From Gemmatimonadota bacterium (lineage in GTDB: Bacteria; Gemmatimonadota; Gemmatimonadetes; Gemmatimonadales; GWC2-71-9), in contig JBDHJR010000007.1 of assembly GCA_039586815.1 (NCBI GenBank), positions 1,844 to 65,843 on the forward strand: DNA of 64,000 bases, in the 5' to 3' direction. Each line of letters opens with the position of its first letter. Positions within the stretch are counted from its first letter, which is position 1. Shown here in pieces: positions 37,353 through 63,542 of this stretch. Made by a program: the position numbers and the translations under genes. The notes below the pieces were generated by a model, which saw nothing but the letters and a program-made list of their open reading frames with translations, was not told the DNA's origin and searched no databases.

Positions 37353-37381
37353 GGTCGCGTTCCCTCTCTTTGACTCGCCGA

Positions 37382-37696: not shown

Positions 37697-37715
37697 GGTG
37701 TTTCCCCCCTATGGC

Positions 37716-39050: not shown

Positions 39051-39249
39051 GGGTTTCCCCCCCTTGTCCTCGTGTATCCCAGCTCCGGGGCGCGGCGCTC
39101 GGGCCGCGGGCCGCCGGTTTCCTTGCATCACCCAGGCGTAAGAATATAACATATCTATATGGCTATTATCAAATTACAATGAAGGGCCCTTCAGATTACC
39201 CGCTATAGGGATAATGTGTTATCGAGCAACGACTTAGCCATCCTGCCGC
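39051..39249 (-). promoter_or_regulatory. AT-rich leader/promoter region upstream of the SQR sulfur operon
   Basis: It contains a ~70-nt stretch that is strikingly AT-rich for this genome (…AAGAATATAACATATCTATATGGCTATTATCAAATTACAATGAAGG…, ~39141-39186). Exact promoter elements are not assigned. Confidence 0.35.
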
Positions 39250-42277: not shown

Positions 42278-43797
42278 TTCGCGCTCCGCGCTTCGGGAAT
42301 CAGGAGGATCGACGGGTGCAGCGTCGGCGCGTCCGGGGTCGAGCCAAAGTAGAGCGTCAGACCCAGGTTGAAGCGCCACTGATCCCACTTGAACGCCGCA
42401 GCGTCGGGCCGCCGACGGTCTTCCGTGTAGTAGCGGGCCTCACCCATCACCCGCACGTCCGGAACCGGCAGGTAGTCGATCCGCAGCGCGCCGTTCCACC
42501 CCTTCACGTCGTTGAAGCGGTACTCCAGCGGCCGCGAGAGGTATCCGCCGTGCCCCGTGATCGTCAGGTTGTCGACCGGCGCCTCCCAGGTGACGCGGAG
42601 GTCGGCGCCGAGCTGCGTCGCGCCCGTTCCCTTCTCGGCCCAGTAGTTGCCGCCGATGCGCCACCGGTCGAACCCCGAGTAGGTGACGCCGAACAGGCCG
42701 CGCCACCCGTCGTTGGCGACGGTCCCGAAGCGGTCGGTGGCCTCGGTGTCCTCGTACTTGAAGATCTCACCGACGCCGCGCAGCTCCAGCCCCCTGATCG
42801 GGTACCAGTAGACGTTGCCGAACCCGGCGTTGTAGCCGACCGGGCTGAAGGAATTCCAGATCTGCCACAGCGGGAAGTTGGGGCGATAGCGCCGCCAGCC
42901 CACGTTGGCCCTGATGTTGCGCTTGGGGGTCGTGTACCCCACGGCCACATCAGCCGTCCCGACCACCCTCTGCGCGATGTCCCACTGCACGCCGCCGGTG
43001 ACCGAGAAGCCGCGCGAGGGGTACCAGGCCAAATCGAGGGTCGTCTGCTCGGCGAACAGGTAGTTGGCGGAGGAGGCCGCGTCGATCTCGCGGTGGTACA
43101 GCCAGCGCCCCTCGAACCCCTTGAGACGCCAACCGAGTCCGCCTCCAATCACGTACTGCCGCTGGGACGGCTGGTATTGGTCAAGCGGATTCACGTACTG
43201 GCTGGAAACCAGCACGGGAGTCCCGCGGGCCAACCCCCATCCGCCGTAGCCGAAGACCTCGAGCCTGCGGTCGAGTAGGAAGAGGTTGAGCTTGGCGCCG
43301 TCCACACCGATGTATCCCAGACGGTTGGTCTCGTGGAACCGGCCCAGCACTGCGGTGAGAAGACTGATCTTGTACTCCCCGTAGGCCTCGAGCAGCTGCA
43401 CGTCCGGCTTCACGGCGGGCCACACGTCGGGGTTCGCCAGATCGGTGCCGGCCCGGGCCTTCACGCGGAAGCTCAGGCCCCTGACGCCGAGCCCAAACAG
43501 CGCCGCATCGAGCGTGCTCACCAGCGGCGCACCCTGCCGCGCCGCTCCCTCTTTGTGGTAGTAGCAGGTCGACGTCGTGCCCTCGCCGCACGTCACGGCG
43601 AAGCCGTTCCACTCGTAGCCCCCGGTGGCGCCGGTCGTCACATCGGCGAATGGAACGCTGTCCAGATCCCAGCCCTTGTAGGCGACGGACTGGAACCAGG
43701 TGTCGAGTCGGACCTGGTATCCTTGGGCGAGAACCGGTGCCGTCCAGAAGACCAGTGCTGCGGCGGCAACCATCACGCGGACGAAGGACCGCTTCAT
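42274..43797 (-). CDS. Putative outer-membrane beta-barrel protein (porin partner of the dodecaheme)
   Basis: ATG at 43797. Signal MKRSFVRVMVAAAALVFWTAPVLAQ. It is Cys-free and rich in Gly/Tyr/Trp/Arg, with alternating-hydrophobic strands (…GLSFRVKARAG…, …LDLAWYPSRGFSVTGGVQWD…, …WRFNLGLTLYF…). I rejected the 95-codon 5' extension in the track. Confidence 0.6.
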   Translation of the reverse strand: MKRSFVRVMVAAAALVFWTAPVLAQGYQVRLDTWFQSVAYKGWDLDSVPFADVTTGATGGYEWNGFAVTCGEGTTSTCYYHKEGAARQGAPLVSTLDAALFGLGVRGLSFRVKARAGTDLANPDVWPAVKPDVQLLEAYGEYKISLLTAVLGRFHETNRLGYIGVDGAKLNLFLLDRRLEVFGYGGWGLARGTPVLVSSQYVNPLDQYQPSQRQYVIGGGLGWRLKGFEGRWLYHREIDAASSANYLFAEQTTLDLAWYPSRGFSVTGGVQWDIAQRVVGTADVAVGYTTPKRNIRANVGWRRYRPNFPLWQIWNSFSPVGYNAGFGNVYWYPIRGLELRGVGEIFKYEDTEATDRFGTVANDGWRGLFGVTYSGFDRWRIGGNYWAEKGTGATQLGADLRVTWEAPVDNLTITGHGGYLSRPLEYRFNDVKGWNGALRIDYLPVPDVRVMGEARYYTEDRRRPDAAAFKWDQWRFNLGLTLYFGSTPDAPTLHPSILLIPEARSAK

Positions 43798-43955
43798 ATA
43801 CCCCTCCCCCAACGGACCGTGTGCGACTATAGTAGGGTCCGGCCGGGAACGCGTCCAGCCCCGAACGCTCCTATCCCCTTTGATTTCTCTTAACGTTTCT
43901 TCATCCAACGGTAGGCCGTCCACTCGGGGTGCGTCGGCCTGCCGGGTTGCCGCCT

Positions 43956-46814
43956 TTACTGGTACCCGAAGAGCATGGAGTACACGATCAGCGCAATCAA
44001 CGTGAGCCCGACTCCGAGCGCCGCAAAAGCGAAGATCCGGAACCCCAGCTCCACCCGCTTGGGGTAGGGCTCGACCAGCCACTCCTCCAGCTTACCCTCC
44101 GCCACCAACTCCTCGTACTCTCCGGGCTTGTCAGCCTTCAGCTCCTCGATGGGCACTCGACCCGTGAAGATCACCGGGTCCATCGGGAATTTGTCGGGCC
44201 GGAAGTGCGTGTTGAAGAAGTGCACGGTGAAGATGAACGCCACCGCCAGCAGCTTCACCGACCACCCGGGCATGATGATCGTGAACAGCTCCGGGAACCA
44301 GAGCAGCAGGCCCGTCGAGCCGATGATGAACATCCCCCAGAAGACCGCGAAGTAATCGAACTTCTCCCAGTAGGTGTACCGCCCGTACTTGGGCCGCGGA
44401 CCACGGCCGAAGAACCACCTGATCGACTGCCCGAACTCCCGGAGGTCACGGGAACCGAAGATGATGGAATCCCGCGAGGTGATGTACTGCCACCACGTCA
44501 GTCCAGCGCTCTTCTTCTGCTTGCGCACGTCCCACAGGTGCACCAGGAACGTCGCGATGAGCGCCACTGCGCCGACACGGTGCAGCACCCCCGTTGTCTG
44601 GAACCCACCGGCCAGCCGCGCGGAAACCTGCGCCCACCCCATGTACGAGAACTTCAGCACCATCCCCGTGAGGGCCAGTATGAAGAAGCTGAGCAGCATC
44701 ACACCGTGCAGCGATCGCTGGAACACGGTGAACCGGCGGTACAGCGGCTCCCCGGGCTTCGCGTGGTGCCGCTTTCGCGCCTCCGGCGTGCGCACCAGCC
44801 GGAACAGCCACGCCAGGGTGTGCAGCGTGGCGAAGGTCAGAGTACCGACCAGCAGTGCCGTCATGCCCCAGAAGGTCCAGAACAGGAACGGGTATTTCTC
44901 CGGATCGTGGTGCGTGGCGTGTGTGAGATACCCCGTGAAGCGGATGTTGGCGCCAGCGTGGCACCGTGAGCAGGTCTCCACCACGTTGCGGCGGCTCAGC
45001 AGCGAGGTCGGCTCGCTGGTGGGCAGGATGTTGTGGGTCCCGTGGCAGTCGTAGCACTTGGCGGCCGCCTCGTCCCCCAAGCGCGAGACCTTGCCGTGGA
45101 ACGTGTCGAAGAAGGTCTTTGCCTCGTCCTCGTGACACCGGCCGCACTGGTTCATCATGAGCAGCCGGAAGTCGCCCCGGTCTACCCGCCTGATGGTGTG
45201 CGACGTGTGGCAGTCCTCGCAGGTGGGGAGCGAGCGGTGGTCGTCGGGCTCTCCCACGTCCGGCGAGTGGATGCTGGTGTTGAAGATCTCCTCGATGCCG
45301 TGATGGCACGTACCGCAAGTCCCGGCGAGGTTGTCGGGGTGCACACTCGAGTTGGGGTCGTCCGCTGGCAGCTCGCGGTGCGCCGTGTGGCAATTGCTGC
45401 ATGTGGCGGTCACAACCAGTCCGCTCTCGAACAGCCCCTTGCCGTGGATGCTCATCTCGTAGCTCTCCACGGGGGGCGGGATGTCCATTGTGCGCGCCAG
45501 GGCTTCGAGCGGCTCCGGTCCAGCGGCTTCGATGTCCTCCATTAGGTGCGCCGACTCGATGCGCACCGCAGCGGTCTGGCCCGTGCGGTGGCACTGCGCG
45601 CACAGCGCCGGCACGTTGCGGGCGAAAGTCGGCGAGGCCGGGATCCGCTTGCCCAGGGTAGCGTGCTGGTCGTGGCAGTCGAGACACACCGGTGCGTCAG
45701 GATCACCTTCGGCGGCCAGCCGGCCATGCATGCCGGCCGTGTACTCCCCGACCTCGTCCTCGTGGCACGCGGCGCAGTCCACCCGCTGGGTGATCGCCGC
45801 GCAGGGTCGCGATAGCCTGGGGCTCACCTCAGCGTGGCACTGGGCACACGGTGTCTCCGCGTGGCTCGAGGTGAAGTACGCTTCCTCGTTCACGTAGAGC
45901 GACACCGTGTCGCCCCGCGCCACTCCCACGAGCTCCTCGTCACCGTGGCATCGCAGGCAGTTGGCGTTGGCCGAGCCAGCCTCGTAGAACACCCTGCGAA
46001 TACGGTGCGGCGCATGGCAGTCCACACAGGCGGGGATCTGGTGAGGCTCCTCCTCCCATAGCCGCCCCTCGATGACCTGCACGTGCACCTGCTCGATCTG
46101 CGCGTGGCACTGCGTGCAGGTTTCCGCGACGTTGTCGTGGTGGATGCTCGAGCGGGCGTCGGTGTGCGGTAGGATGAAGTGCGACGTATGGCACGAGGTG
46201 CACACCGCCGTCACGGTGAGCCCCTGCTCGTACAGCCCCGAGCCGTGGATCGACTGGGAGTAGTTCTCGAGGATGCTGTCCTGGGGAATCTGCAACCGCC
46301 GCGAGACTGGCGTGCCCTCCTGGTGGCACTCCCCGCACAGGAACGGGATGTTCATCACCCGCGTGGGCGAGCGGGGGTCGCGGTGGGAGCGTATGTCGTG
46401 CGTGCCGTGACAGTCGACGCAGCTGGGGGCAAGCGGGTCGGCACGGGCTGCCGCCTGCCCGTGCAGTGAAGCGTCGTGCTCCTCCGCCTGCTGGCGGTGG
46501 CACAGGCTGCAGTCGACCGCCGGCACATCGTCGGGATGCGGGAAGCTCAGCCCGGTGTGGCACATGACGCAGAGCATCCCGGTCTGCCCGTGCGCGGATC
46601 CGCCGAACTCTTGCTCGTCCACGACGAGCTGCGCAGCGTCGGGGCGCCCCTCGAACAGCGCGGGGTTGGTGTGGCACATCAGGCAGGGTTGATTGTCCTG
46701 TGCCACTGCGCCCGCAGCCACACAACAGAAGAAGGCGGCGAGCAGCACACCCCTCCCAACCACCCACACCCGATGGTTCCGGCTGCTCGACCGCCACCCA
46801 TGATGGCTGCGCAT
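43956..46814 (-). CDS. CbcL-like fusion: 19-heme periplasmic cytochrome c domain + C-terminal diheme b-type (HydC/FdnI-like) membrane domain
   Basis: ATG at 46814 (MRSHHGWRSSSRNHRVWVVGRGVLLAAFFCCVAAGAVAQ). I counted 19 CxxCH motifs from CLMCH to CSRCH. A 4-5 TM domain follows with conserved His residues (…FQRSLHGVMLLSFFILALTG…, …GVLHRVGAVALIATFLVHLWD…, …FIFTVHFFNTHFRPDKFPMD…). Confidence 0.85.
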   Translation of the reverse strand: MRSHHGWRSSSRNHRVWVVGRGVLLAAFFCCVAAGAVAQDNQPCLMCHTNPALFEGRPDAAQLVVDEQEFGGSAHGQTGMLCVMCHTGLSFPHPDDVPAVDCSLCHRQQAEEHDASLHGQAAARADPLAPSCVDCHGTHDIRSHRDPRSPTRVMNIPFLCGECHQEGTPVSRRLQIPQDSILENYSQSIHGSGLYEQGLTVTAVCTSCHTSHFILPHTDARSSIHHDNVAETCTQCHAQIEQVHVQVIEGRLWEEEPHQIPACVDCHAPHRIRRVFYEAGSANANCLRCHGDEELVGVARGDTVSLYVNEEAYFTSSHAETPCAQCHAEVSPRLSRPCAAITQRVDCAACHEDEVGEYTAGMHGRLAAEGDPDAPVCLDCHDQHATLGKRIPASPTFARNVPALCAQCHRTGQTAAVRIESAHLMEDIEAAGPEPLEALARTMDIPPPVESYEMSIHGKGLFESGLVVTATCSNCHTAHRELPADDPNSSVHPDNLAGTCGTCHHGIEEIFNTSIHSPDVGEPDDHRSLPTCEDCHTSHTIRRVDRGDFRLLMMNQCGRCHEDEAKTFFDTFHGKVSRLGDEAAAKCYDCHGTHNILPTSEPTSLLSRRNVVETCSRCHAGANIRFTGYLTHATHHDPEKYPFLFWTFWGMTALLVGTLTFATLHTLAWLFRLVRTPEARKRHHAKPGEPLYRRFTVFQRSLHGVMLLSFFILALTGMVLKFSYMGWAQVSARLAGGFQTTGVLHRVGAVALIATFLVHLWDVRKQKKSAGLTWWQYITSRDSIIFGSRDLREFGQSIRWFFGRGPRPKYGRYTYWEKFDYFAVFWGMFIIGSTGLLLWFPELFTIIMPGWSVKLLAVAFIFTVHFFNTHFRPDKFPMDPVIFTGRVPIEELKADKPGEYEELVAEGKLEEWLVEPYPKRVELGFRIFAFAALGVGLTLIALIVYSMLFGYQ

Positions 46815-46958
46815 CCTCGTCACCACTCGTCCCCGCCTAGATTCGATCGAATCGTGCCCCCGCCAAGATACACTTGAATGCCGCACCGAGAGCCGGCCCG
46901 GTAGATCCTAAAGAATTCCTCACCCGAATTTGTAAGTCGGTGCCAGGTCACCCCTTAG

Positions 46959-46998
46959 GCGAGGGGCGGGAGGTACCTAGGCACCTCCCGCCCCTCGC
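46959..46998 (-). terminator. Perfect 16-bp GC-rich stem-loop between the two CbcL-like genes
   Basis: GCGAGGGGCGGGAGGT-ACCTAGGC-ACCTCCCGCCCCTCGC lies 19 nt downstream (minus strand) of the stop at 47017. There is no U-tract, so it may be a terminator, attenuator or mRNA-stability element. Confidence 0.55.
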
Positions 46999-47016
46999 TA
47001 CTCCACGTGCGCTACG

Positions 47017-49008
47017 TCAGTTCTTCGTCCGCACCGTTCCGCCTGATTCTCGCGTCGGCGTGTTCTGCGCTGCGGCGGCGTTCTCATCAACGCCTTGAGC
47101 CGAGGCCGCGGGAGCCAACTCCTCGTCATACCACTGCGCGTGGTGGTGCATCACGAAATGCTCCGGCAAGCGGCCCGTTAGCCATGCCCAGTTCATGGGG
47201 TATGCGTCGGGGTGCACGATCACGAAGAAGAGGTGCCACACCAGGATTGCAAGCGTGGCGAGCCAGGCCTCGTAGTAGTGCACCGTCTGCGACGCCGGCA
47301 CGATCCACCACGGCAGGATCTTCACCGCCGCGACCGGGAACCAGAGCACGAATCCGGTCACCACCATGACCACCGTGCCCCACACCAGCGCCCAATACTC
47401 CGCCTTCTGCGTGTAGTCGTAGCGCCCGAAGCGCGGGTGCTTCCTCGTACGCCACGTGTAGTACCGCAGGTACTGCGTCGCGTCGGTGGCGTCGCGCCAC
47501 TGCGGCAGCATCGCCTTGAACTCTTCCTTGCCCCGCCGCGTCATCATGACGTACAGCACGTGGCTCACCGCCACCGCGATGAGCACGACCGCGGCGATGC
47601 GGTGCAGGTTGGAGCGCACCGGCTCGTTCATGCCGATGGCGGTGAGCCATTGGACCCACCACGCGTCGGGGAACCGCAGCGCAAACCCCGTGACCACCAG
47701 CAGGATGAAGGCCACGGCGTTGACCATGTGTTGCGCCACCTGAGTACGATCGAGCCGCGTGATGTAGCCCACCCGCCGTTCCTCCCGGCGGCGCTCGATC
47801 AGGTAGTAGTTGAACACCACGGCGTTGTGCAGCGCCATGATCCCGATCGTCGCCGCGATGATCACGTAGTAGATGAGGCGGATCACGTTGTTGATCGGGT
47901 TGGCCGCCATGGAGGCCGTGATGTGGGTGTAGCTGGTTGCGAACTCCGTGTCGGCATCCGGATGGCACTGTCCGCAGGTGGCCGTCAGGTTGGCCGGGTG
48001 GATCGTGGAGGCCGAGTCGGACGCCGGCAGCACTGCATGGGTGGTGTGGCAGCTCACGCAGGTGGCGGCGCGCTCATAGTCGCGGGCCGTCGCCCAACCG
48101 TGGTAGCTGTCCTCGTAGGTGCCAATGACGCCACCCTGCATGCCATACTTGGCGATGATCTCCGGGTCGCCGTGGCACTCGCCGCACGTCTCGGTCGCGA
48201 GCCGGGCGTCGTAGGTCCGGGCGTGGGGGTCGTCGTGGGACAGGATCAAGTGCTCCCCGTGACAGTCCGTGCACGTGGGGCTGTCGCCCAACCCCGCCCG
48301 CAGCGCCCGCCCGTGAATCGAGGCATCGTAGAGCCGCTCAATTTCGTCGTGGCATTGGCCGCACGTGGAGGCGACGTTCAGGTGGTTGATCTTGGACTCG
48401 GGGTCCAGCGTCCCCCGCAGATCGTGCACGCCGTGGCAGTCGGTGCAGCGGGCGGCATCTCCGTCACCGTTGCGGCCGTGCACTGACTGGGCGTACGACC
48501 CGTAGATCTGGGGCAGGCGGACGGCCTCTTCGGTACGCAGGCCCGCCTCGCCGTGACAGGCGGCGCACATTATTGGGACGTTCTCGTGGTGAGTACGCGC
48601 CTCCGGATCCGAGCTGCGCCGGATGTCGTGCGCCCCATGACAGGAGGCGCAGGTCGGAGCTGCGGCAACCCCGCGCGCCAACGCGTAGCCGTGCAGGCTC
48701 TCGCTGAACTCCTGTTCCACGCCGCCGTGACACCCTCCGCAGCTCGGTGGCGGGGCGTCGGCAGGATGGGGGAACCCCGTGTAGCCCTGGTGACAGAACA
48801 CGCACTGCAAGCCAAGCGCCCCGTGCACGGAGGATGTGTACTCCTCCTCCGTGACCACCATCTGCGTCGGGTCCTCCAGCCCGGAGAACATGGCCACGTC
48901 GCCGTGGCACATGAGGCAGAGTTGGTTGTCCTGGGCCGCGGCGGGCTGTGCCGCTATGAATACGCTGGCGATCGCCAGCGAGAAGATCGTCAAGGGACTC
49001 GCGCGCAT
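47017..49008 (-). CDS. CbcL-like fusion: 11-heme cytochrome c domain + C-terminal diheme b-type membrane domain
   Basis: ATG at 49008 (MRASPLTIFSLAIASVFIAAQPAAAQ). 11 CxxCH motifs: CLMCH, CVFCH, CGGCH, CASCH, CAACH, CTDCH, CGQCH, CTDCH, CGECH, CVSCH, CGQCH. The TM domain has His residues at …VAQHMVNAVAFILLVVTG…, …LHRIAAVVLIAVAVSHVLY…, …TVHYYEAWLATLAILVWHLFFVIVHPD…. Its N-terminal 60 aa are clearly paralogous to those of 43956-46814. Confidence 0.85.
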   Translation of the reverse strand: MRASPLTIFSLAIASVFIAAQPAAAQDNQLCLMCHGDVAMFSGLEDPTQMVVTEEEYTSSVHGALGLQCVFCHQGYTGFPHPADAPPPSCGGCHGGVEQEFSESLHGYALARGVAAAPTCASCHGAHDIRRSSDPEARTHHENVPIMCAACHGEAGLRTEEAVRLPQIYGSYAQSVHGRNGDGDAARCTDCHGVHDLRGTLDPESKINHLNVASTCGQCHDEIERLYDASIHGRALRAGLGDSPTCTDCHGEHLILSHDDPHARTYDARLATETCGECHGDPEIIAKYGMQGGVIGTYEDSYHGWATARDYERAATCVSCHTTHAVLPASDSASTIHPANLTATCGQCHPDADTEFATSYTHITASMAANPINNVIRLIYYVIIAATIGIMALHNAVVFNYYLIERRREERRVGYITRLDRTQVAQHMVNAVAFILLVVTGFALRFPDAWWVQWLTAIGMNEPVRSNLHRIAAVVLIAVAVSHVLYVMMTRRGKEEFKAMLPQWRDATDATQYLRYYTWRTRKHPRFGRYDYTQKAEYWALVWGTVVMVVTGFVLWFPVAAVKILPWWIVPASQTVHYYEAWLATLAILVWHLFFVIVHPDAYPMNWAWLTGRLPEHFVMHHHAQWYDEELAPAASAQGVDENAAAAQNTPTRESGGTVRTKN

Positions 49009-49195
49009 CGTCTTCCTCCACTCCAACCCGGCCATCGTGTGGCAACCACCCATTCCCATCGCCGCTCGTCCATCTCACCGTTGGGATATATGGCCCGACG
49101 GCGCATGAAAGATAATGGGAACCACAGCTCCCGAAGGGACGAATTACCTGTTAGGAGGTCTTACCCGACCAGAGGAGTCGCGATTTCGTCGCGCC

Positions 49196-51185: not shown

Positions 51186-52421
51186 CTACGGCTTGGCTTC
51201 CCGCAACTTGAACCAGGCGAGCGCGATCACCGATAGCGCCAGGAACCAGACCGGAACGAGCAGCAGCTTGTGCTCCCACTGTTCCTCCGCGTGCGCCTCC
51301 GCCGTGGCCCGGATGATCCCCGTGTTCGAACGCACACGCAGCCCAAGATCTCTCAGCTGTTCGAGGTCCAGACTGTGCTGCACCAGCGCGACCTGGTTGT
51401 ATTCTGAGACGGCACTCTGGTAGCGGAAGCGCTCATCAGCTACCTCGTGACCCATCGCCACCATCTCATCGATGGCATCGGCCGCCTGGTGGAGCTCCTC
51501 CGTGGCTCGCAGCACTTGTTCCTGGATCTCCGCGCCCATGAGTCCCGGACCACTCTCGGCATCGTGACACCTTTGACACAGCGCGGCGATCGCGTCGAAC
51601 GGCGTGCGCTCGGTACCATGGTTGCTGTGGCATCCTAAGCAGCCCTGGAGCTCCCCGCTGCGTGCCGGCCCACCGTGCGGCCCCCGGTAGAACGCTCGCC
51701 CCAGAAGCTCGTGGCACTGACTGCACACGTCGGCGATCTGGTTGACCGCGGGCGGCAACGCAGCGTGCGAGCCGTGACACCCGATGCAGGTCGGCGCCGC
51801 AAAATTGCGTTGCTCGAACACGGCGACTCCATGGGCTCCGGTGCGGTAGCGCTCGAACTGATCGGTGGGCTCCCTGTACCGGGCCATGAGCTGCGCGTCC
51901 TCATGGCAGTTCCCGCACGTGGCCGGGATGTTCGTGGGGTGGACCTCGCTGCGCGCATCCTCCGGCGGCAGGATCAGGTGCGCGTTGTGGCAGTCGGTGC
52001 ACGTGGGCGCGGCGGCGTCGCCCTGTTCGAGAAGCAGTTGGCCGTGGCGACTGGTGCGGAACTCGGCGAGCTGGTCGGCCGCCAGACCGTACTGCCGCAT
52101 CTGGTTGGGGTCGGCGTGGCAGGCACTGCACAGTTGGATGGTCCCCAGCTTGCTGGGCGTTCCAACGAATCGCCCCTGATGCGCTGCCGGGGCCTCGTAC
52201 ACCGCCGTGTTGCCTCCATGACAGTCGTGGCACTTGATACCCTGCTCCGAGTGCACTCCGAGCGTGAACGATCGCCGTTTGTCGGCGTGGCAGACGATGC
52301 AGCCGTACACGGAGTCGTCCTGTGCAGCGAGTCTCTGAGCCGGGGGCACGGGCGCCGCGGTGGCGCCATCCGGCACCGCCCCCAAGAGGAGCACCAACCC
52401 CAGGACCGAGAGGGTCCTCAT
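51186..52421 (-). CDS. Nonaheme c-type cytochrome with C-terminal membrane anchor (paralog of 57711-58994)
   Basis: The ATG at 52421 shares one nt with the cytochrome b stop. Signal MRTLSVLGLVLLLGAVPDGATA. Nine CxxCH motifs (CIVCH, CHDCH, CSACH, CTDCH, CGNCH, CIGCH, CSQCH, CLGCH, CQRCH). A helical region and a C-terminal TM helix LLLVPVWFLALSVIALAWF follow. The 196-codon 5' extension in the track overlaps cytochrome b and is rejected. Confidence 0.8.
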   Translation of the reverse strand: MRTLSVLGLVLLLGAVPDGATAAPVPPAQRLAAQDDSVYGCIVCHADKRRSFTLGVHSEQGIKCHDCHGGNTAVYEAPAAHQGRFVGTPSKLGTIQLCSACHADPNQMRQYGLAADQLAEFRTSRHGQLLLEQGDAAAPTCTDCHNAHLILPPEDARSEVHPTNIPATCGNCHEDAQLMARYREPTDQFERYRTGAHGVAVFEQRNFAAPTCIGCHGSHAALPPAVNQIADVCSQCHELLGRAFYRGPHGGPARSGELQGCLGCHSNHGTERTPFDAIAALCQRCHDAESGPGLMGAEIQEQVLRATEELHQAADAIDEMVAMGHEVADERFRYQSAVSEYNQVALVQHSLDLEQLRDLGLRVRSNTGIIRATAEAHAEEQWEHKLLLVPVWFLALSVIALAWFKLREAKP

Positions 52422-53779
52422 CACGGCCTCCCCACTCCATCCCCGACAGCGCTGTCTGCGGGAGATCCCGGCTCTACCGGCGTCGGCCCGACTCGTTCGA
52501 GCGGTGTGCTGGATCTCGCCGGCACCACCCGCTCCTGCCGCTCCACCTGCCCAATTCCCTCGGAGGGAGGCAACGAACCGATGCCCCGCCCCAGGGCCCA
52601 CAACATGACGAAGCCGCCGAAGAAGACCGCCCCGAGAGCGGCCACAACCGGGCGCTTGCGGATGTGTCGCTCCGGGCGTCGATCGAACAGGGGGAGGAGG
52701 AACAGGCTGAAACCCACCAGCGTAAAGGCCGTGAACCCCCACATCCCGAGATAGCGAAGCAACGCCAGCGACACGTCTACGGGCACCCAGGTGGAGACCA
52801 ATCGATCTGGTACCGTGAGGGGATCCGCCGGATTGCCGAACGGCCGCGGGAACAGCACGGCCAGGGTCACTACCAGCGCCAGGACCAGCACCGTCACGCT
52901 GAGTGACCTCAACAGGTGGTTGGGGAAGAAGGGCGTGCCCTGCTGCTCGGCCTCCTCCATCGCCTGCTTCAGAACTTCCTGTGTCGTTCCCACAGCACTC
53001 AGGCGCCACGGCGCCTTCTCTTCGTTTACTTCTACCGGCGGCGCGATGCCGCGGCGGCGCACGAGCGTGAAGTGGTACGAGAGCAGCGCCAGAGAGATCC
53101 AGGGAAGCACGATCACGTGTAGCGAGAAGAAACGGCTGAGCGTCGCGCCCGACACGATTACGTCACCCATGAGGGCATCAGCAATCACCCCACCGAAGAA
53201 CGGGAAGCCGGAGATCGCAACCAACACCTCGGTCACCGTCCAGTAGGCCCACTGATCCCAGGGCAGCAGGTAGCCGCTGGCGCCGAACGCCAGGACCACT
53301 CCCAGCAGGAGCAGCCCGACGGTCCAGTTGGTCTCCCGGGGGGGCTTATACGCCGCCTCGAACAGGACCCGCGCCATGTGCGCCAGAACGGCCAGAACGA
53401 TGAGGCTTGCGGACCAGACGTGGACGTGGTAGATCAGCCAGCCGAACGACACGTTCGACACGATGTGTTGCACGCTCGGGTTGGCCTCTTGCACCGACGG
53501 GCGATAATACAGCGCCAGCAACACGCCCGTGACCACCAGCATCATGAAGAGCACGTACGTGATGCCACCGAACATCTGGCGCCAGCCCACGTGGGGGTCG
53601 AGCCGGTACTTCAGAGCCTTGCGGAGTGCATCATCGATCCGCAGCCTGCGGTCGATCGGTCCGTAGATCAGCCCGAGGAACCGGGCGCCTCCCAGCAGGC
53701 CCGCATCTGCACTCGCCTTGAGGTCGTCCCACGTCTGGGAGAACCATAGGCTCGTGGCGTGCCACATCCGACGAATCAT
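52421..53779 (-). CDS. Cytochrome b (fused b6 + subunit-IV type), divergent: Qo PEWY motif absent
   Basis: …FGGITYVLFMMLVVTGVLLALYYRPS…FGWLIYHVHVWSASLIVLAVLAHMARV… has the heme His pair at H-x13-H. …TLSRFFSLHVIVLPWISLALLSYHF… has H-x14-H. In the position where the paralog 56113-57210 reads KPEWYF, this protein reads VSTWVP. Confidence 0.85.
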   Translation of the reverse strand: MIRRMWHATSLWFSQTWDDLKASADAGLLGGARFLGLIYGPIDRRLRIDDALRKALKYRLDPHVGWRQMFGGITYVLFMMLVVTGVLLALYYRPSVQEANPSVQHIVSNVSFGWLIYHVHVWSASLIVLAVLAHMARVLFEAAYKPPRETNWTVGLLLLGVVLAFGASGYLLPWDQWAYWTVTEVLVAISGFPFFGGVIADALMGDVIVSGATLSRFFSLHVIVLPWISLALLSYHFTLVRRRGIAPPVEVNEEKAPWRLSAVGTTQEVLKQAMEEAEQQGTPFFPNHLLRSLSVTVLVLALVVTLAVLFPRPFGNPADPLTVPDRLVSTWVPVDVSLALLRYLGMWGFTAFTLVGFSLFLLPLFDRRPERHIRKRPVVAALGAVFFGGFVMLWALGRGIGSLPPSEGIGQVERQERVVPARSSTPLERVGPTPVEPGSPADSAVGDGVGRP

Positions 53780-53780: not shown

Positions 53781-54236
53781 CTATGACTCCGTCACGTAAA
53801 CTGTGCCGTCCCGTACGAACACCGAGTAGCGGGCGAGCGGTGCGGTGGAGAGGCCGGTCACGACGTAGCCGTGCAGGTCGTAGATCACGTAGGAGCAGGG
53901 CGAGAAGACGCGCGACGACTCGTCATCCCACTGGAGGATGCAACCGTCGCTGGGGGAAACGCCCTGCAAGGCAAAGTATGTGTCTTCCTCGACCCTAACG
54001 ACGAGGATCGCGCGCTCGCCCCACCGCACCAGCCGGCTTGCGCCGACCGGGAAGTCGGCCTGGCGCACCACGCGAAACGCAGGCTGCACCTGGGGGATCT
54101 CGAGGCGCTCGCCCGGTAGGACGTAGAGCCCGACACTCAGCCCGATGGTCGCGAGGATCAGGACAACGACCGCGCCGAGCAGGAGCTCGTTGAAACCGAG
54201 CCCCGAAGTCTTCTCCTCCGCACCGTCAGCGCTCAG
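53781..54236 (-). CDS. Rieske-fold protein lacking all four 2Fe-2S ligands (pseudo-Rieske subunit), probable N-terminal TM anchor
   Basis: Alignment with the canonical Rieske protein at 57212-57694:
[32 protein letters not shown]
GVSPSDGCILQWDDESSRVFSPCSYVIYDLHG
Box spacing is identical, but Cys/His/Cys/His are all Ser, while the two disulfide Cys are kept. The track ORF starts at GTG 54089. However, the frame stays open to 54329 and encodes a TM helix (LLLGAVVVLILATIGLSVGLYVL) with no ATG/GTG/TTG. I propose a CTG start at 54236, preceded by GGGAGGGGA. The 5' end is uncertain. Confidence 0.55.
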   Translation of the reverse strand: MSADGAEEKTSGLGFNELLLGAVVVLILATIGLSVGLYVLPGERLEIPQVQPAFRVVRQADFPVGASRLVRWGERAILVVRVEEDTYFALQGVSPSDGCILQWDDESSRVFSPCSYVIYDLHGYVVTGLSTAPLARYSVFVRDGTVYVTES

Positions 54237-56112: not shown

Positions 56113-57210
56113 TCAACTCGCAGGATCGGCCGTGTATCCGAGATAGGTCAACACGATGATGTAGACGATCATGGCAATCCCGATCCACGTATACAACCGG
56201 CTCGGCTCGCCTCGTGCGGAGCGTCGGTCGAGCAGCGGGATGAGCAGCACGAAGAGACCGGCCAGGCCGAACCCGATGATGCCTACGACCTCTCCCTCGA
56301 TTCCCAAGATGTGGGCCGGTAGGTACTTCAACGTCTGGAACGTGAACATGAAGTACCACTCCGGCTTGATGCCCGCCGGCGCAGGAGCGAACGGGTCCGC
56401 CTTGTCACCGAGATGCGCCGGGAAGTAGGCCGCCAGTGCCGCCAGCGCCGCCAGCGCCACGAGCCACCCGACCAGGTCCCGCAGCAGGAAATTGGGGACG
56501 AACGGCATTGCACCCTTGCTGCCTCCGCGCCGTTCGACGTCGAGCGGGACGCTCATCCCCTGCTTCTGCACGAGGAACAGATGAAGCCCTAGAATGGCGA
56601 CGGTGAGCAGCGGAAAGACAGCCACGTGAAACGCGTAGAACCGCGTGAGCGTGGCCCCTGTCACGTCGTCTCCCCCGCGCGCCACCCGCAGCAGGAACTC
56701 CCCGACGACCGGCACCACCCCGAGGATCTCGGTCCCCACTCGCGTCGCGAAGTATGCCAACTCGTTCCAGGGCAGCAGATACCCGGTAAACCCGAAGGCC
56801 AACGCTAGGCCCATGAGCGCCACGCCGGAGAACCAAGTTATCTCCCTCGGCCGGCGGTAGGCCTTCAAGAGCAGCACGCTGAACAGGTGAATGAACAGAG
56901 TGAAGATCATCAGGTTCGCCGCCCACGAATGGATCGAGCGGACCAACCATCCGAACTCCACTTCGGCCATCAGGAACTGCACCGACTCGTAGGCCTCCTC
57001 GGCGCTCGGTCGGTAGTAGAACAGCAACAGGATGCCCGTGGACACCTGGACGATGAACAGGAAGAGGGTCATCCCACCCAGGTAGTACCAGATCGTGTGC
57101 CGGTGGACCGGCACCTCCTTCTTCTTAGCGAGGGCTTTCAGGCCGGCCAGCCCGACACGCGCCTCGAGCCACGCCTCGCACTCCACCAACCACTTTCGCA
57201 ACCGCGCCAT
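56113..57210 (-). CDS. Cytochrome b (fused b6 + subunit-IV type), canonical
   Basis: …[28 protein letters not shown]…[25 protein letters not shown]… (H-x13-H), …[26 protein letters not shown]… (H-x14-H), and the Qo motif …[17 protein letters not shown]…. Confidence 0.9.
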
Positions 57211-57211
57211 A

Positions 57212-57694
57212 TCAGCTTTCCCTGCTCACGAAGATCTGATCGTCGCGCACGTTCACGACGTACGCCTCGAGCGGCGTCGGGGGTGGGCCCTCGATTTGCT
57301 GGCCATTGAGGTCGAAGTGCCCGTTATGGCACGCGCACCAGATATGGCCGATGTCCCCTCGATACTGCACGATGCAGCCCAGGTGCGTGCAGGCGGCCGA
57401 GAAAGCTCGAAATTCACCGGCACTGGTGCGCACCAGGATCCCCGGTCGGCTGCCAAACCTGAAGATCTGGGCCGAGTTGGGCGGGACGTCAGCGGGTGTG
57501 AACGGTAGCACTACCGAGGCCGCCGCGGACTCGCCCGCCGCGGGCGGCACGAGGTAGCGTCCCGTAGGGTAGAGTATCGCCAGTACCAGGCCGCCGACGC
57601 TGGTGCTGAGCAGCCACGTCGTCAACGTCCTGCTCAGCACCCAATCGATGAATCTCCTGCGAGAAGTCCCGCGCTCGGGGCCGTCTGCAGCCAT
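57212..57694 (-). CDS. Rieske 2Fe-2S protein (canonical ligands, Tat leader)
   Basis: Tat motif SRRRFIDW plus a TM helix. Cluster boxes CTHLGC and CACHNGHF. It lies 1 nt upstream of cytochrome b. Confidence 0.9.
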
Positions 57695-57710
57695 TCAGAG
57701 GTCCTCGGGT

Positions 57711-58994
57711 TCAGGTGGTGGGTTGTTCCCTGCTATCGAGCTCGCGGATCTTGAGCAGGAGCCCGACAATCAACATCCCGATGATGACCACCGAGATGGC
57801 CAATCCCATGCGTCGGAACTGGAGCCGCCCCGTTGCCTGTACCCCAAGCTCGTGGGCCGTCGCCGCGATCTCCAACCCCGACTCGACCTCGTCCTTCACG
57901 GCAATCACGTTGAACGAGTGCACGGCCGCTCGGGCGCTGATCAACGCGGTGCTCGCGCCGGTGAGCTCGAATTGCGCCTGGCTCACCTCCATGCCGGCGT
58001 CCTCTGCCCGCTCCAGAAGCGAGTCCGCCTCATGATGCGCCGTCGAGAGGGAGTCGATCAGGCTGCGCATCGCGCTGGCTACCTGGCCACCCGGGTCTCC
58101 GGAGGTGTGGCACCTGGCGCACACCGCTCCCTCCTCGAGCCCGAGTAGATCGTCACCGGGCCGCGTGATGTCGTGGTTGTTGTGGCACGTTGCACATCCC
58201 GGCACACCCAGCATCGCAAATGTCCGCGCGTGCCTGCTCTGCGCGAAGAGATCCGCCATCACGCTGTGGCACTGCCCGCACACGTTGCCGACCCAGGAGA
58301 TTCCGGGCGGGGCAGCGCCATGATTGCCGTGACAGTCGTTGCAGGTGGGTGCCGACAGATCGCCCCCTTCCGACATCGCCTCCCAATGGACGCTCCGCTG
58401 ATATCGCTCCAGTTGGTCGACGGGAATGCGATACGGCTCCATGTACTCGGCATCGGCATGACAGCTCGAGCAGGTCGCAGGTACGTTCAGCGGATTGACA
58501 CTCGAGAGCGGGTCCGTCGGCGGTCTGATGGAGTGCGCTGGGTGGCAGCTCACGCACGTCGCCGTCTTTGAATCGCCGAGCTCTATCAGCCGCCGACCGT
58601 GAACCGAGCTGGCAAATTCCGCCACCTGGTCAACACGAATCGACGGGTTATAGCGCCTCATGAACTCCGCGTTCGAGTGGCAGCGACCACAGAACTCGGC
58701 AACCTGCTCGCGCCCGGGCTTGGCGAGGAATCCCTTGGCCGGGTCCATGGAGGTAATCCCAGGATCCGTCGCATCGCCGCCGTGGCAGGCGACACAGCCA
58801 AATCCCCTCGCCGCATGAATGTCACTGGGAAACGCCCTCGCTGGATTGGAGAGCCGTTCGTCGCCCAGCACCAGGTGGCACGCTCGGCAGTTGTCCTCCG
58901 CGGCCTCCTGCTCTTGCGCAAGCACATCTGCCTGCGACGCGAACGTGGCAAGCAGACAGAGCGAGGCGAGCGTGCGGAGAGCCGAGCGCGACAT
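57711..58994 (-). CDS. Nonaheme c-type cytochrome with C-terminal membrane anchor (paralog of 51186-52421)
   Basis: Signal MSRSALRTLASLCLLATFASQADVLAQ. Nine CxxCH motifs (CRACH, CVACH, CGRCH, CVSCH, CSSCH, CNDCH, CGQCH, CATCH, CARCH). A helical region and the TM helix GLAISVVIIGMLIVGLLL follow. Confidence 0.85.
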   Translation of the reverse strand: MSRSALRTLASLCLLATFASQADVLAQEQEAAEDNCRACHLVLGDERLSNPARAFPSDIHAARGFGCVACHGGDATDPGITSMDPAKGFLAKPGREQVAEFCGRCHSNAEFMRRYNPSIRVDQVAEFASSVHGRRLIELGDSKTATCVSCHPAHSIRPPTDPLSSVNPLNVPATCSSCHADAEYMEPYRIPVDQLERYQRSVHWEAMSEGGDLSAPTCNDCHGNHGAAPPGISWVGNVCGQCHSVMADLFAQSRHARTFAMLGVPGCATCHNNHDITRPGDDLLGLEEGAVCARCHTSGDPGGQVASAMRSLIDSLSTAHHEADSLLERAEDAGMEVSQAQFELTGASTALISARAAVHSFNVIAVKDEVESGLEIAATAHELGVQATGRLQFRRMGLAISVVIIGMLIVGLLLKIRELDSREQPTT

Positions 58995-60250
58995 CAGTTC
59001 TCACGCCCCAGCGTCTGGAGATACGAAGACAGGTCCGCCATCTCGACGGTGCTGAACGTGGGCCAGGCCTCGCCTTCTATCATGGCTGCGTGGTTCCACA
59101 GTGCCGCCATGACCGCGGCGGGCGAGTCGAGCCCTTGAACCTGAGCCAGGTCGCCGGCCGCCGTGCCTCCTGTTCCTCCCACTGAATGACACTCCAGACA
59201 TCCCTTATCTCGCACGCGGCGCGCTCCTCGGGTCGCATTGCCTGCCTCGCCAAAGTACCGAACCGACGACAGATAGGCGACGAGATCCGCCATGTCTCCC
59301 GCGCTGAGCCGCGGGACCGAGATCCCACTCGTCTGGATCGCCTCGAGCATGGAGGGAGCCTTATTCCACATGGCCGCGGCGAAGTCGATCAGGCTCTCGT
59401 GCCGTCCCATTCTACCCAGGTCCGGTGCCAACATGCCAGTCTCACCATCGTCGCCGTGGCATTGGCTGCAGCCACGGTCCACGAAACGCTGGCGGCCCTC
59501 CACCGGACGCCCCGGGAGCACGTACAGCGGTGCAGTCGGCATCGCCGGAGACCACGACTCCAGGAAGGCGATGACATCCGTCAGCTCGGAGCCAGTGAAG
59601 GAGGGACGTCTGATTCCTTGAGCCCGCATCGCTTCGGTCATTGCCGGGCCGTGGTTCCACATCGCCGTGGCGATCTGGATCGGCGATCCGTACTGGCTCA
59701 GGAAGTCGAGGTCCGGCCCGGCGACACCACCAACTCCGGCGACCTGGTGGCAGAGCACGCAGTTCTTCTCGGTGAAGAGCTGCCGACCGCGCTCGATCTC
59801 GCCGGGAGGATCGAAGTAGTCGAGCCATACCAGAAAGGCGACCAGGTCGCCGGCTTCCCACGGATCCAGGTGTGGCCGCGCGATCCCGAGCTCATCCATA
59901 CGCTGCACCATCTGCGGGAGGTGATTCCACATCGCGGCGGCAAAGCCGTAGTAGGACTGAGGCTCGGAGGACCGCCCCAAGTCGGGGCCCACCGCGCCGC
60001 CAACTCCGTCGATGGCATGGCACCCGGCGCACCCCATGGCTCCGAAGAGCCGTGCACCTGCCGGCACGCTTTGGCCAGTTCCTTCCGGTATCTGCGAAAG
60101 CAGCGGCTGGAGCGGCCAGCCGAGCACCACGAGAGCGCCACACAGCGCCCGCACCGTGGCTCCCATGCTGTGTCTGATCATTGGCCACCGTCCTTCATGC
60201 TGAAGCCCAACTCGCACTGGCAGACCAGCACTCTGCAGCAGAGCCGTCAT
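58994..60250 (-). CDS. Cytochrome c with four tandem class-I monoheme domains
   Basis: Four ~100-aa repeats of G..LF…GC..CH…G.GG..GPDL……..A.MWNH...M…….P.…E..D..A(F/Y)L. The heme motifs are CAGCH, CVLCH, CSQCH and CLECH. The start is uncertain: 60250 directly abuts the upstream stop, and an alternative ATG lies at 60181. Confidence 0.8.
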   Translation of the reverse strand: MTALLQSAGLPVRVGLQHEGRWPMIRHSMGATVRALCGALVVLGWPLQPLLSQIPEGTGQSVPAGARLFGAMGCAGCHAIDGVGGAVGPDLGRSSEPQSYYGFAAAMWNHLPQMVQRMDELGIARPHLDPWEAGDLVAFLVWLDYFDPPGEIERGRQLFTEKNCVLCHQVAGVGGVAGPDLDFLSQYGSPIQIATAMWNHGPAMTEAMRAQGIRRPSFTGSELTDVIAFLESWSPAMPTAPLYVLPGRPVEGRQRFVDRGCSQCHGDDGETGMLAPDLGRMGRHESLIDFAAAMWNKAPSMLEAIQTSGISVPRLSAGDMADLVAYLSSVRYFGEAGNATRGARRVRDKGCLECHSVGGTGGTAAGDLAQVQGLDSPAAVMAALWNHAAMIEGEAWPTFSTVEMADLSSYLQTLGREN

Positions 60251-61480
60251 TCAGTCACGCCCTCCCGGCTCCTGTGCTTCGGCGAGATTCTTGAGAAAGA
60301 CCGACAGATCCCGCATTTCGTCGCCTTCGAACAGCGGCCACTCCGCATGTTGGAGCTGCGACTGGTCGTACATGGCCGGGGCATGGTCCCACATGGCCGT
60401 GGCGAGTCCGAGCGGCGTCCGGACCGCCTGCGACTCGGATAGGTCGGGTCCGGCCGCCGACTCGCTGCCGCTGGTGTGGCAGGTCGAGCATCCTTTGCTG
60501 CCGAACAGCGCCTCGCCCCGCCGCACGTCACCCCCCATCTCATTGAACCGCAGGTAGTACAGGAACGCGATCACGTCGGCCATTTCGGTTCCTTGGAACC
60601 GCGGAAACGAAATACCCCGACCGCGCATGACCTGGGCCATCTGCGACGCGTGGTTCCACAGCGTCCCCGCGATCTCGGAAACCCGCAGCCGTTGCGTCGC
60701 CGTGCGCAGGTCCGGGCCGAATGCCGTCCCGCTACCATCCGGTCCGTGGCAGGCGACACATCCTTTCGTCGTGAACAGCCGTCGACCCGTGTTGGGGTCT
60801 GGCGGCGTGAGGAACACCAGGTCGCGTCCCCGCAGCGAAGAACGCTCTCGGATGTACGCCTGGATGTCCGCCATCTCTCGCCCGAGGAAGGTGGGCATCG
60901 GGACCCGCTCCACCGATAGCTGCGCTCGCATACTGGCCCAGTGGTTCCACATCCCCTGGGCAAGCACGATCGGTGCGACATAGCGAGCGTAGTCGTCGAG
61001 CGCAGGACCGCCATTCCCGCCTTCACCGCCCACGGCGTGACATGCTGCGCAGCGCTGTTCCCGGTACCACCGCTCGCCGAGCCCGGGGTCTCCCGGCTCG
61101 TCGAACAGCTTCACGTAATAGATGTAACTGATGATGTCAGCGAGCTCCGCCTCCGTGAAGGTGGTCCACTGGAATCCCCTCTCTCTCACGGTCTGTATCA
61201 TCCTCGGCGTGTGGTTCCAGAACACCCCCGCCAGTTGCTGCAGGCTCCGACCGGCTCCGACCAGCGCGAAGTCGGGACCCAGGTTGCCGCCATTCCCCCA
61301 GATGGCGTGGCACCGCACACAGCCCCGCTCGACGAACAGGCGCCGACCGGCAATTGGGTCGCCCGGAATCGACTCGGTTGACTGTGCATGGGTGCTCGGC
61401 GCGCCGGTCATGGTGAGCCAGGCGAGGGCTCCCACGACCCGCAACCACGGATGTTTCACACAACGAAGAGGAGGCATCAT
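60251..61480 (-). CDS. Cytochrome c with four tandem class-I monoheme domains (paralog of 58994-60250)
   Basis: Signal …VVGALAWLTMTGAPSTHAQ. Heme motifs CVRCH, CAACH, CVACH, CSTCH, each followed by GPDL…(M/F)WNH…M and …E(L/M)ADI(I/Q)(S/A)Y(I/L)…. Confidence 0.8.
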   Translation of the reverse strand: MMPPLRCVKHPWLRVVGALAWLTMTGAPSTHAQSTESIPGDPIAGRRLFVERGCVRCHAIWGNGGNLGPDFALVGAGRSLQQLAGVFWNHTPRMIQTVRERGFQWTTFTEAELADIISYIYYVKLFDEPGDPGLGERWYREQRCAACHAVGGEGGNGGPALDDYARYVAPIVLAQGMWNHWASMRAQLSVERVPMPTFLGREMADIQAYIRERSSLRGRDLVFLTPPDPNTGRRLFTTKGCVACHGPDGSGTAFGPDLRTATQRLRVSEIAGTLWNHASQMAQVMRGRGISFPRFQGTEMADVIAFLYYLRFNEMGGDVRRGEALFGSKGCSTCHTSGSESAAGPDLSESQAVRTPLGLATAMWDHAPAMYDQSQLQHAEWPLFEGDEMRDLSVFLKNLAEAQEPGGRD

Positions 61481-61496
61481 CTGTCTCTCACGACGG

Positions 61497-62843: not shown

Positions 62844-62844
62844 G

Positions 62845-63528: not shown

Positions 63529-63542
63529 CGTTCCCGCACCCC

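Follow-up and report, generated by a model that had tools for sequence, protein, structure and literature searches.

The subject of this study is an operon of a Gemmatimonadota bacterium in which genes for a cytochrome b and a Rieske-fold protein stand together with those of two multihaem cytochromes c. It lies on contig JBDHJR010000007.1 of assembly GCA_039586815.1, within a stretch of 64,000 nucleotides (positions 1,844 to 65,843 of the forward strand) that we refer to as the window, and all coordinates below follow the numbering of that window. To our knowledge, the Rieske cluster and the PEWY loop of cytochrome b are treated as the defining quinol-oxidation machinery of all bc1 and b6f complexes. 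The operon described here carries neither the ligands of the cluster nor the loop. An original prediction, made from the nucleotide sequence of the window, had pointed out both losses and proposed a coordinated shift to a quinol:multihaem-cytochrome oxidoreductase that works outside the Q cycle.

By its sequence and its haem ligands, the cytochrome b encoded by 52421-53779 is a member of the cytochrome b/b6 superfamily. It matches the Pfam models Cytochrome_B (PF00033; 157.1 bits, cut-off 27.2) and Cytochrom_B_C (PF00032; 27.8 bits, cut-off 20.7), and it is 36% identical (BLASTP, E 2e-55) to a second cytochrome b of 365 amino acids (aa) encoded at 56113-57210, hereafter the canonical neighbour. 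Among solved structures, its N-terminal half is closest to cytochrome b6 (1q90_B, E 7e-50) and its C-terminal part to subunit IV of the b6f complex (2zt9_B, E 1e-6); the hydropathy profile and these alignments concur on seven transmembrane helices in a chain that is fused, not split. Both pairs of haem-b histidines are kept, as had been noted at the outset: H120 and H134 are spaced H-x13-H in helix B, H221 and H236 are spaced H-x14-H in helix D, and all four, together with the haem-packing glycines, are 100% conserved across the family that is delineated below. There is no cysteine anywhere in the 452-aa protein, and the position of the CxGG motif in helix A reads Q-M-F-G-G; since it has no cysteine, the protein cannot carry haem cn. 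Its length exceeds that of the canonical neighbour by 87 aa. The Pro/Gly-rich tail after helix G takes up 55 aa against about 8 aa in the neighbour, and the remainder is made up of an N-terminal extension and an insert of about 21 aa in the de loop. The C-terminal extension, first put at about 80 aa, thus comes down to about 47-55 aa. By topology, the tail is predicted to face the periplasm; past about residue 405 it is variable, and with a family entropy of 2.38 it is less conserved than any other segment but the de-loop insert.

The most telling feature of this protein is found at the quinol-oxidation (Qo) motif. Here STWV (residues 329-332, window 52784-52795) falls opposite the PEWY of the canonical neighbour in the BLASTP alignment. 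The same register, STWV against PEWY, is obtained without gaps by phmmer against solved b6f subunit IV chains, in which the partner chain reads LTVPDRLVSTWVPVDVSLALLR and the core of the alignment facing the STWV segment is DRLVSTWVPVDVS, so that the register is confirmed. A regular-expression search for P-x-W-[YF] found no match in the whole protein. With the ungapped alignment and this negative search, a PEWY that is present but shifted can be rejected, and the replacement stands as first described.

The replacement is shared by a whole family of proteins. A search of 5.8 billion proteins gave 778 hits below 1e-10, and in all of the best 120 of these 778 (57-92% identity), which were inspected, the pattern S-[TS]-W-[VI]-[PV]-V-D-V-S occupies the PEWY position, so that P, E, and Y are replaced in every listed homologue. 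Where they are named at all, these 120 are Gemmatimonadota proteins. Across the family, the nine columns are conserved at 98% (S), 79% (T), 100% (W), 83% (V), 67% (P), 97% (V), 96% (D), 100% (V), and 92% (S); the corresponding figures for 83 canonical representatives are 100% (P), 86% (E), 100% (W), 100% (Y), and 96% (F). The cd1 helix motif PWDQWAYW is kept and strongly conserved in the STWV family, and E184 is present in 96% of its members at a column where canonical proteins have Val (91%). Natural Qo motifs have been catalogued by Kao and Hunte (2014; PMC4122944) as PEWY, PDWY, PPWF, APWY, PPWY, PAWY, and PDWF, and every catalogued variant retains the W plus either Y or F. A separate scan of one genome per species yielded 184 loci with a relative, and the best 80 of these 184 were examined. 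All 80 are Gemmatimonadota metagenome-assembled genomes (MAGs), the closest being M8-12_Bin_273 (94% identity). So far, the family has been seen only in Gemmatimonadota MAGs, whose names point to sediment, groundwater, and other environmental sources.

The second loss concerns the gene directly upstream. Aligned to the canonical Rieske proteins of the same loci, its product has [SAG]-P-x-D-G-C instead of CTHLGC in box I and S-P-C-x instead of CACH in box II. The four cluster ligands (C-x-H and C-x-x-H) are missing in all 80 Rieske-like sequences of the family, whereas the two cysteines that pair as a disulfide in bc-type Rieske proteins (position 6 of box I and position 3 of box II) are kept in all 80; the canonical Rieske neighbours retain both ligands and cysteines (32/32). 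The protein matches the Pfam model Rieske_2 (29.2 bits, cut-off 27). Its AlphaFold2 (AF2) model (mean predicted local distance difference test score, pLDDT, 85.9) consists of a transmembrane helix at residues 15-39 and a beta-sandwich, and the top match of that model in Foldseek is the Rieske domain of the Chlorobaculum bc complex (8hn2_A, E 3e-9, TM-score 0.81), with kuste4569 of Kuenenia (9rk4_A) also among the matches. The twin arginine of the canonical twin-arginine translocation (Tat) motif is gone in the window and in most family members, and a few (for example in loci L049, L050, L068, and L078) keep an RR pair; the mode of membrane insertion of this subunit seems to have changed along with the loss of the cluster. 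The gene lies directly upstream of the cytochrome b gene in 79 of the 80 genome loci, which are all those with upstream DNA, and also in three metagenome loci that hold the most divergent representatives. It had been asked whether cytochromes b of the STWV type always go together with a Rieske gene devoid of ligands, and this holds in every locus examined that has upstream DNA.

The absence of ligands in this open reading frame (ORF) had been recognized correctly; its length of 102 aa, on the other hand, was an under-call, and about 151 aa with a transmembrane helix is the better figure. The helix is conserved in the homologues, the extension that holds it is under constraint, and the frame stays open in the window, where the minus strand offers no ATG, GTG, or TTG start for this part of the gene (54090-54236). 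Translation probably begins at a CTG (54236-54234), which is preceded by GGGAGGGGA and aligns with a GTG in locus L002 and with Met1 of the canonical Rieske protein. Read from this codon, the protein aligns with the canonical Rieske protein from end to end, residue 1 to residue 1 (BLASTP, 29% identity, E 6e-16). Gene callers list the closest homologues (loci L001 and L003) as truncated products of 128 aa.

One may ask whether this subunit is still redox-active through another centre, either a dithiol of Cys99 and Cys114 or a metal site that also involves Asp97 and Ser112. In all 45 aligned homologues, Cys99, Cys114, Asp97, Ser112, and Pro113 do not vary, and this, with the cysteines kept in every family sequence, is what such a proposal would build on. 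The same two cysteines form a structural disulfide in bc-type Rieske proteins, and because they are this structural pair, a plain disulfide is the simplest reading. Moreover, two Cys with one Asp and one Ser make up no known set of [2Fe-2S] ligands, and the missing Tat motif of most members hints at a protein exported unfolded and without a cofactor. Altogether, we regard a substitute redox centre in the Rieske fold as highly improbable.

Cytochrome b and its Rieske-like partner are followed by two multihaem cytochromes c. In the first, of 411 aa, nine CxxCH motifs are counted, as in each of 50 homologues. Its paralogue in the canonical module of the window, likewise nonahaem, is 32% identical (E 2e-66) with equal haem spacing. 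The second, of 662 aa, has 21 CxxCH motifs in 54 of 61 homologues. Its first haem motif reads CTNCHIM, i.e., CxxCHxM, which is found family-wide; the protein matches PF03264 with 35.2 bits (cut-off 24.1) over the N-terminal part of the profile only, and residues 23-159 match the NrfH model TIGR03153 at E 7e-13 with 48.9 bits, below the cut-off of 134.2. The junctions between the genes are tight: TAG-c-ATG between the Rieske-like and cytochrome b genes, TGATG with an overlap of 1 nt to the nonahaem gene, and TAG-g-ATG to the 21-haem gene, by which the four genes in the window are translationally coupled. Where a locus extends far enough, the 9-haem and then the 21-haem gene almost always follow cytochrome b, and in locus L084 the four genes stand alone, flanked by unrelated genes. 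Given this conserved composition and the stand-alone locus, we regard these four genes as the core of the module; they amount to about 32 haems per protomer (Table 1).

Table 1. Genes and sequence features of the cytochrome b operon and of its surroundings, in window coordinates
Feature	Position	Strand	Remarks
Cytochrome b	52421-53779	-	452 aa, ATG start; fused b6 + subunit IV type, seven transmembrane helices
Span of the four haem-b His codons	53072-53422	-	read from the sequence
Haem-b ligand codon H120	53420-53422	-
Haem-b ligand codon H134	53378-53380	-
Haem-b ligand codon H221	53117-53119	-
Haem-b ligand codon H236	53072-53074	-
Qo motif replacement S329-T-W-V-P-V-D-V-S337	52769-52795	-	canonical: P-E-W-Y-F-L-x-x-x
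Pro/Gly-rich C-terminal tail, residues 398-452	52424-52588	-	G9 P9 V7 R6 S6
Rieske-fold subunit without cluster ligands, about 151 aa	53781-54236	-	probable CTG start 54236-54234
Transmembrane helix of Rieske-like subunit, residues 15-39	54120-54194	-
SGLGF in place of the canonical Tat motif SRRRF	54192-54206	-
Rieske-like box I, SPSDGC	53940-53957	-
Rieske-like box II, SPCSYV	53886-53903	-
Nonahaem cytochrome c, 411 aa	51186-52421	-	signal peptide and C-terminal transmembrane anchor
21-haem cytochrome c, 662 aa	49196-51184	-	N-terminal transmembrane helix, NrfH/NapC-like quinol-dehydrogenase module
Canonical module	56113-58994	-	nonahaem c 57711-58994; Rieske 57212-57694; cytochrome b with PEWY 56113-57210
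Nonahaem cytochrome c, 528 aa	54376-55962	-	probable lipoprotein signal LAMAAC
Two multihaem cytochromes c fused to FdnI/HydC-type dihaem b domains	43956-49059	-	680 aa, 11 haems; 976 aa, 19 haems

With hallmark catalytic residues lost in both partners, one could suspect a decaying and functionless remnant of a duplicated bc operon. The ORFs are, however, intact in more than 80 genomes, and the replacement motif is itself conserved, as are the operon structure and the translational coupling. Ratios of non-synonymous to synonymous substitution rates (dN/dS), computed against five relatives (L001-L005), are 0.09-0.21 for the cytochrome b gene and 0.05-0.18 for the core of the Rieske-like gene (0.26-0.40 for its N-terminal extension), which brings the range for the two proper to 0.05-0.21. 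Both genes are under strong purifying selection, and there is no decay; a pseudogene or a chance origin of STWV is rejected on the same two grounds, the conserved motif and the low dN/dS. The earlier conclusion that this is not random decay is supported, and we find a functionless remnant hardly credible.

The boundary of the family is sharp. In an exhaustive profile search over 1.84 billion representative sequences, full-length members scored at least 426 bits, and the next match scored 304 bits and has PEWY. The genomic context of the latter representative (P0127) is uninformative since its contig begins at the gene. Within the boundary, there is a handful of representatives with STWI, STWV, SNWV, or SSWI, and one divergent member with ILWF. 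When 135 sequences were placed in a neighbour-joining tree, all 100 bootstraps recovered the family, with the ILWF member inside it, as a monophyletic group. The PEWY neighbour in the window was considered as the parent of the STWV gene and rejected, as the family and the canonical clade of Gemmatimonadota are joined in 0 of 100 bootstraps; the family profile gives the canonical cytochromes b of Gemmatimonadota 225-259 bits, not above generic ones.

In the same tree, the STWV family has as its apparent sister a rare group of seven clusters at 90% identity (P0132, P0186, and P0382-P0386), hereafter the sister clade. Loci L085, L086, and L087 represent it in its genomic setting, and in L086 and L087 the operon is the same: a Rieske gene, a cytochrome b gene with the same N-terminal extension, a nonahaem cytochrome c, and an NrfH-like cytochrome with about 21 haems. 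The latter two are 32% (E 7e-63) and 39% (E 3e-125) identical to the respective subunits in the window. In L087 (GCA_044222185.1), this module follows a canonical Rieske/cytochrome b/multihaem module, in the same tandem layout as in the window, and the canonical cytochromes b of the two are 56% identical. The sister Rieske protein is intact, with CTHSEVC...CPCH ligands and the Tat motif RRSFL, and the Qo motifs of the clade are VEWY, RPWY, VKWY, PSWY, and IPWY, that is, xxWY. The two groups thus differ in that the sister clade has Rieske ligands, a Tat motif, and xxWY, and also in ACT-like inserts. An ACT-like domain is found at the N-terminus of its Rieske protein in L085-L087 (weak or precomputed matches to PF18152), and the de loop of its cytochrome b holds an insert of about 60 aa that looks alike. 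In one member (P0186), Leu replaces the second His of helix D, a ligand of haem bH.

Because the sister clade combines an intact Rieske protein with xxWY motifs, erosion of the Qo motif would have preceded the loss of the cluster, which appears to be the derived state. In a first step, the Pro and Glu of PEWY would have been freed from constraint while the Rieske protein was still intact; in a second, the stem lineage of the Gemmatimonadota family would have lost the ligands of the cluster along with its Tat motif and the Tyr; and in a third, STWVPVDVS would have become fixed. The original prediction held that the Rieske ligands and PEWY had been lost together, and this is only partly borne out: the erosion of Pro and Glu predates the loss of the cluster, as the sister clade indicates, but the change from Y to V and the fixation of STWVPVDVS fall on the same branch as the loss of ligands and Tat motif. 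A point that weighs against this order of events, as it does against the functional reading given below, is that the sister relationship is recovered in 52 of 100 neighbour-joining bootstraps only; synteny backs it independently.

What, then, might such a complex do? As in bc1, b6f, and bacterial bc complexes, there is a cytochrome b fold with two bis-His haem sites and seven transmembrane helices in a b6 plus subunit IV arrangement, a membrane-anchored Rieske-fold subunit encoded directly upstream, and a membrane-anchored c-type cytochrome. Unlike those complexes, it has no [2Fe-2S] ligands, no Tat motif, no PEWY, and no CxGG cysteine, and it has an additional NrfH-like subunit with 21 haems. 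Since the Qo motif, the Rieske ligands, and the Tat motif are all missing, the system should not be filed as complex III-type. The ligands of the cluster, which is the first acceptor of the bifurcated Qo reaction, are gone, and a Rieske-dependent Q cycle is therefore impossible, in line with what had been proposed. Both b haems are conserved, so transmembrane electron transfer through cytochrome b would still be in use, a point left out of account in the original prediction. We consider it probable that the operon encodes a functional and cluster-free link between quinone and multihaem cytochromes that does not bifurcate electrons by way of a Rieske centre. There is about an even chance, in our judgement, that the fuller description is right, namely a conserved four-subunit membrane complex descended from a Rieske/cytochrome b/multihaem c complex, now without the Rieske [2Fe-2S] centre and connecting quinone to a haem wire. 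That it may act as a quinol:multihaem-cytochrome oxidoreductase, as first suggested, is a reasonable reading of the gene content.

In such a complex, the menaquinone pool would be linked to a long periplasmic haem wire without bifurcation. In the reading that we prefer as the most economical, haems bH and bL would themselves form a wire joining the periplasmic (P-side) multihaem chain to a quinone site at the cytoplasmic (Qi, or N) side. Quinone chemistry at cytochrome b would then be confined to the N side, making the Qo-specific elements dispensable, and the Rieske-fold subunit and the STWVPVDVS loop may have been retained as a structural or docking interface near haem bL. Electrons could run outward, from quinol to periplasmic or extracellular acceptors and helped by the membrane potential, or inward, from periplasmic donors to quinone, conserving energy. 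The elements that a wire would need are retained, namely the haem ligands, the packing glycines, and highly conserved N-side segments (entropy 0.26 for the bc loop and 0.75 for the N-terminal b6-like segment), and we hold this version with an N-side quinone site and a transmembrane wire tentatively, at somewhat less than even odds of being correct. Several observations speak against it. On the P side, the ef motif (entropy 0.67) is conserved to the same degree as the haem helices, and invariant carboxylates have been gained on that side, namely D335 and E184 (the latter a Val in canonical proteins). A conserved P side with such carboxylates would have the look of a proton-handling pocket that is still catalytic and not purely structural. 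Entropy per segment does not separate N-side from P-side models, as both surfaces are conserved, and the AF2 model of cytochrome b, built on a family alignment of 24 sequences, is too poor to show pockets (pLDDT 52).

These same observations lend weight to the main competing possibility, in which a remodelled P-side pocket still oxidizes quinol and a c haem replaces the [2Fe-2S] cluster as the first acceptor. Candidates for this role are haem 1 of the NrfH-like subunit and the haems of the nonahaem subunit, and the second electron could pass via bL and bH to an N-side site, or both electrons could go to c haems. The strong conservation of the cd1 helix and of the new ef motif fits such a pocket, in which the invariant E184, S329, T330, D335, and S337 could stand in for the Glu of PEWY in proton handling. 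The Rieske-fold loops SPxDGC and SPC are kept with their two cysteines, their canonical counterparts being in contact with the Qo pocket, and both b haems are kept as well. The known catalytic residues of the Qo site are gone, however (the His ligands of the cluster as well as P, E, and Y of PEWY), and we know of no precedent for a fixed c haem that replaces a mobile Rieske head. Furthermore, the sister clade has an intact Rieske protein next to an NrfH-like subunit, so that the latter did not come in as a replacement for the cluster. Quinol oxidation at a P-side pocket is on this balance somewhat unlikely. Its strictest form, a Q cycle run on haems in which quinol at the remodelled pocket sends one electron through bL and bH and the other to a c haem, strikes us as decidedly unlikely. 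If it were true, such a Q cycle would need no iron-sulfur centre at all, the cluster-less Rieske fold would be a fixed lid, and the sister clade that keeps its Rieske protein would be the natural "before" state.

Another source of P-side quinol oxidation is the NrfH-like subunit. In the structure of NrfHA from Desulfovibrio, CxxCHxM reportedly marks the haem that interacts with quinol. With this motif in the NrfH-like subunit, quinol may have a P-side site that does not depend on cytochrome b, and this subunit may add to P-side quinol oxidation or take it over. Taken to its end, quinol would be oxidized solely by the NrfH-like module, and cytochrome b and the Rieske-fold subunit would be an inherited scaffold or electron buffer. 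NrfH, CymA, and NapC are self-sufficient quinol dehydrogenases, and the transmembrane helix and CxxCHxM are found family-wide at the N-terminus of the 662-aa subunit, in line with this proposal. Were cytochrome b a mere scaffold, however, one would not expect 100% retention of its four haem ligands, nor such low dN/dS and so large a number of invariant polar residues in both membrane-surface regions, and we judge this reading improbable. With NrfH, NapC, and CymA the 662-aa protein shares the helix and CxxCHxM at its N-terminus, along with the model matches given above; it has 21 haems where those have 4-5, and it is encoded in a cytochrome b operon.

The reading as a link from quinone to a haem wire finds its closest counterparts in other membrane-bound cytochrome systems. 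FdnI/HydC-type dihaem b proteins coupled to multihaem cytochromes c follow the same logic, with electrons passing from a transmembrane dihaem b to periplasmic haems without an Fe-S centre, and CbcL of Geobacter is such a protein, as are the two fusions encoded just downstream of the STWV operon. Their membrane fold is unrelated to that of the STWV-type cytochrome b (PF01292 versus PF00033), which makes this an analogy and not a family tie. The ExtP/ExtQ and Cbc-type systems of Geobacter have a b6-like cytochrome b beside multihaem cytochromes, as does the STWV operon. The NCBIfam model for ExtP (NF040969) gives our cytochrome b 191.1 bits, under its cut-off of 290, and the canonical neighbour 217 bits; because the match is below the cut-off and the canonical neighbour scores higher, we read it as general b6 likeness only. 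Lastly, NirD and other Pfam Rieske_2 proteins share with the Rieske-like subunit a Rieske beta-sandwich without cluster ligands. Unlike NirD, the subunit is closest in both sequence and fold to bc-type iron-sulfur subunits, and it has a transmembrane anchor and the bc-type cysteines. The searchable full-text literature yielded no description of an STWV-type cytochrome b, of a cluster-less bc Rieske protein, or of this Gemmatimonadota operon, and the cytochrome b phylogenies of Baymann (2012) and Dibrova (2017) describe no such group.

The operon is embedded in a region rich in cytochromes. Upstream lies the canonical module, whose Rieske protein reads SRRRF, CTHLGC, and CACHNG. Between the two modules, the gene of the 528-aa nonahaem cytochrome is found, which stands upstream of the STWV module in roughly half of the loci and which we consider accessory and not core for that reason; residues 60-177 of this protein match the C-terminal part of the NCBIfam model "UshA-like (seleno)protein" (E 1e-17, below the cut-off). 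Directly downstream of the module are the two multihaem cytochromes fused to FdnI-like b domains, related genes being present in many of the 80 loci. Both fusions (680 and 976 aa) resemble CbcL of Geobacter. Further on, downstream of the 976-aa cytochrome (41324-44082, minus strand), there is a 602-aa ORF without a match in Pfam or NCBIfam. It is rich in Gly and aromatic residues, starts like a signal peptide (MKRSFVRVMVAAAALVFWTAPVLAQG), and has the look of a beta-barrel of the outer membrane. It is followed by a 354-aa multihaem cytochrome, and the two together could form a porin-cytochrome conduit.

On the other side, upstream of the canonical bc module (58994-63855, minus strand), there are genes for two proteins of about 410 aa, both of which carry four monohaem repeats of cytochrome c. 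Their neighbours, an NrfD-like membrane protein and a protein of the 4Fe-4S type, look by sequence like ActC and ActB of alternative complex III. If so, at least three distinct quinol-oxidizing systems would lie side by side in this region. A CcmF-type gene for cytochrome c maturation is located about 13 kb downstream of the cytochrome cluster and about 22 kb from the cytochrome b gene. In between are genes for a nitroreductase, a DsrE-like protein, and a pyridine-nucleotide disulfide oxidoreductase (these genes and the CcmF-type gene: 28634-30718 and 36840-39918, minus strand).

For annotation, the consequences are practical. Current databases name the proteins of this operon "cytochrome bc complex cytochrome b subunit", "Rieske (2Fe-2S) protein", "nitrite reductase/ring-hydroxylating ferredoxin subunit", or "hypothetical protein", and metabolic reconstructions may count such proteins as a second complex III. 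In terms of biology, a whole lineage of bc-type complexes has dropped both the cluster and PEWY while keeping the b haems, the Rieske fold, its anchor, and its cysteines under strong selection. It amounts to a natural experiment on what a cytochrome b core can do without bifurcation, for which the sister operon with its intact Rieske protein offers a direct comparison. In short, the operon points to an unrecognized route by which the menaquinone pool would be joined to a wire of about 30 haems. The phylum concerned is abundant but little studied, and the route is possibly relevant to extracellular or periplasmic electron transfer.

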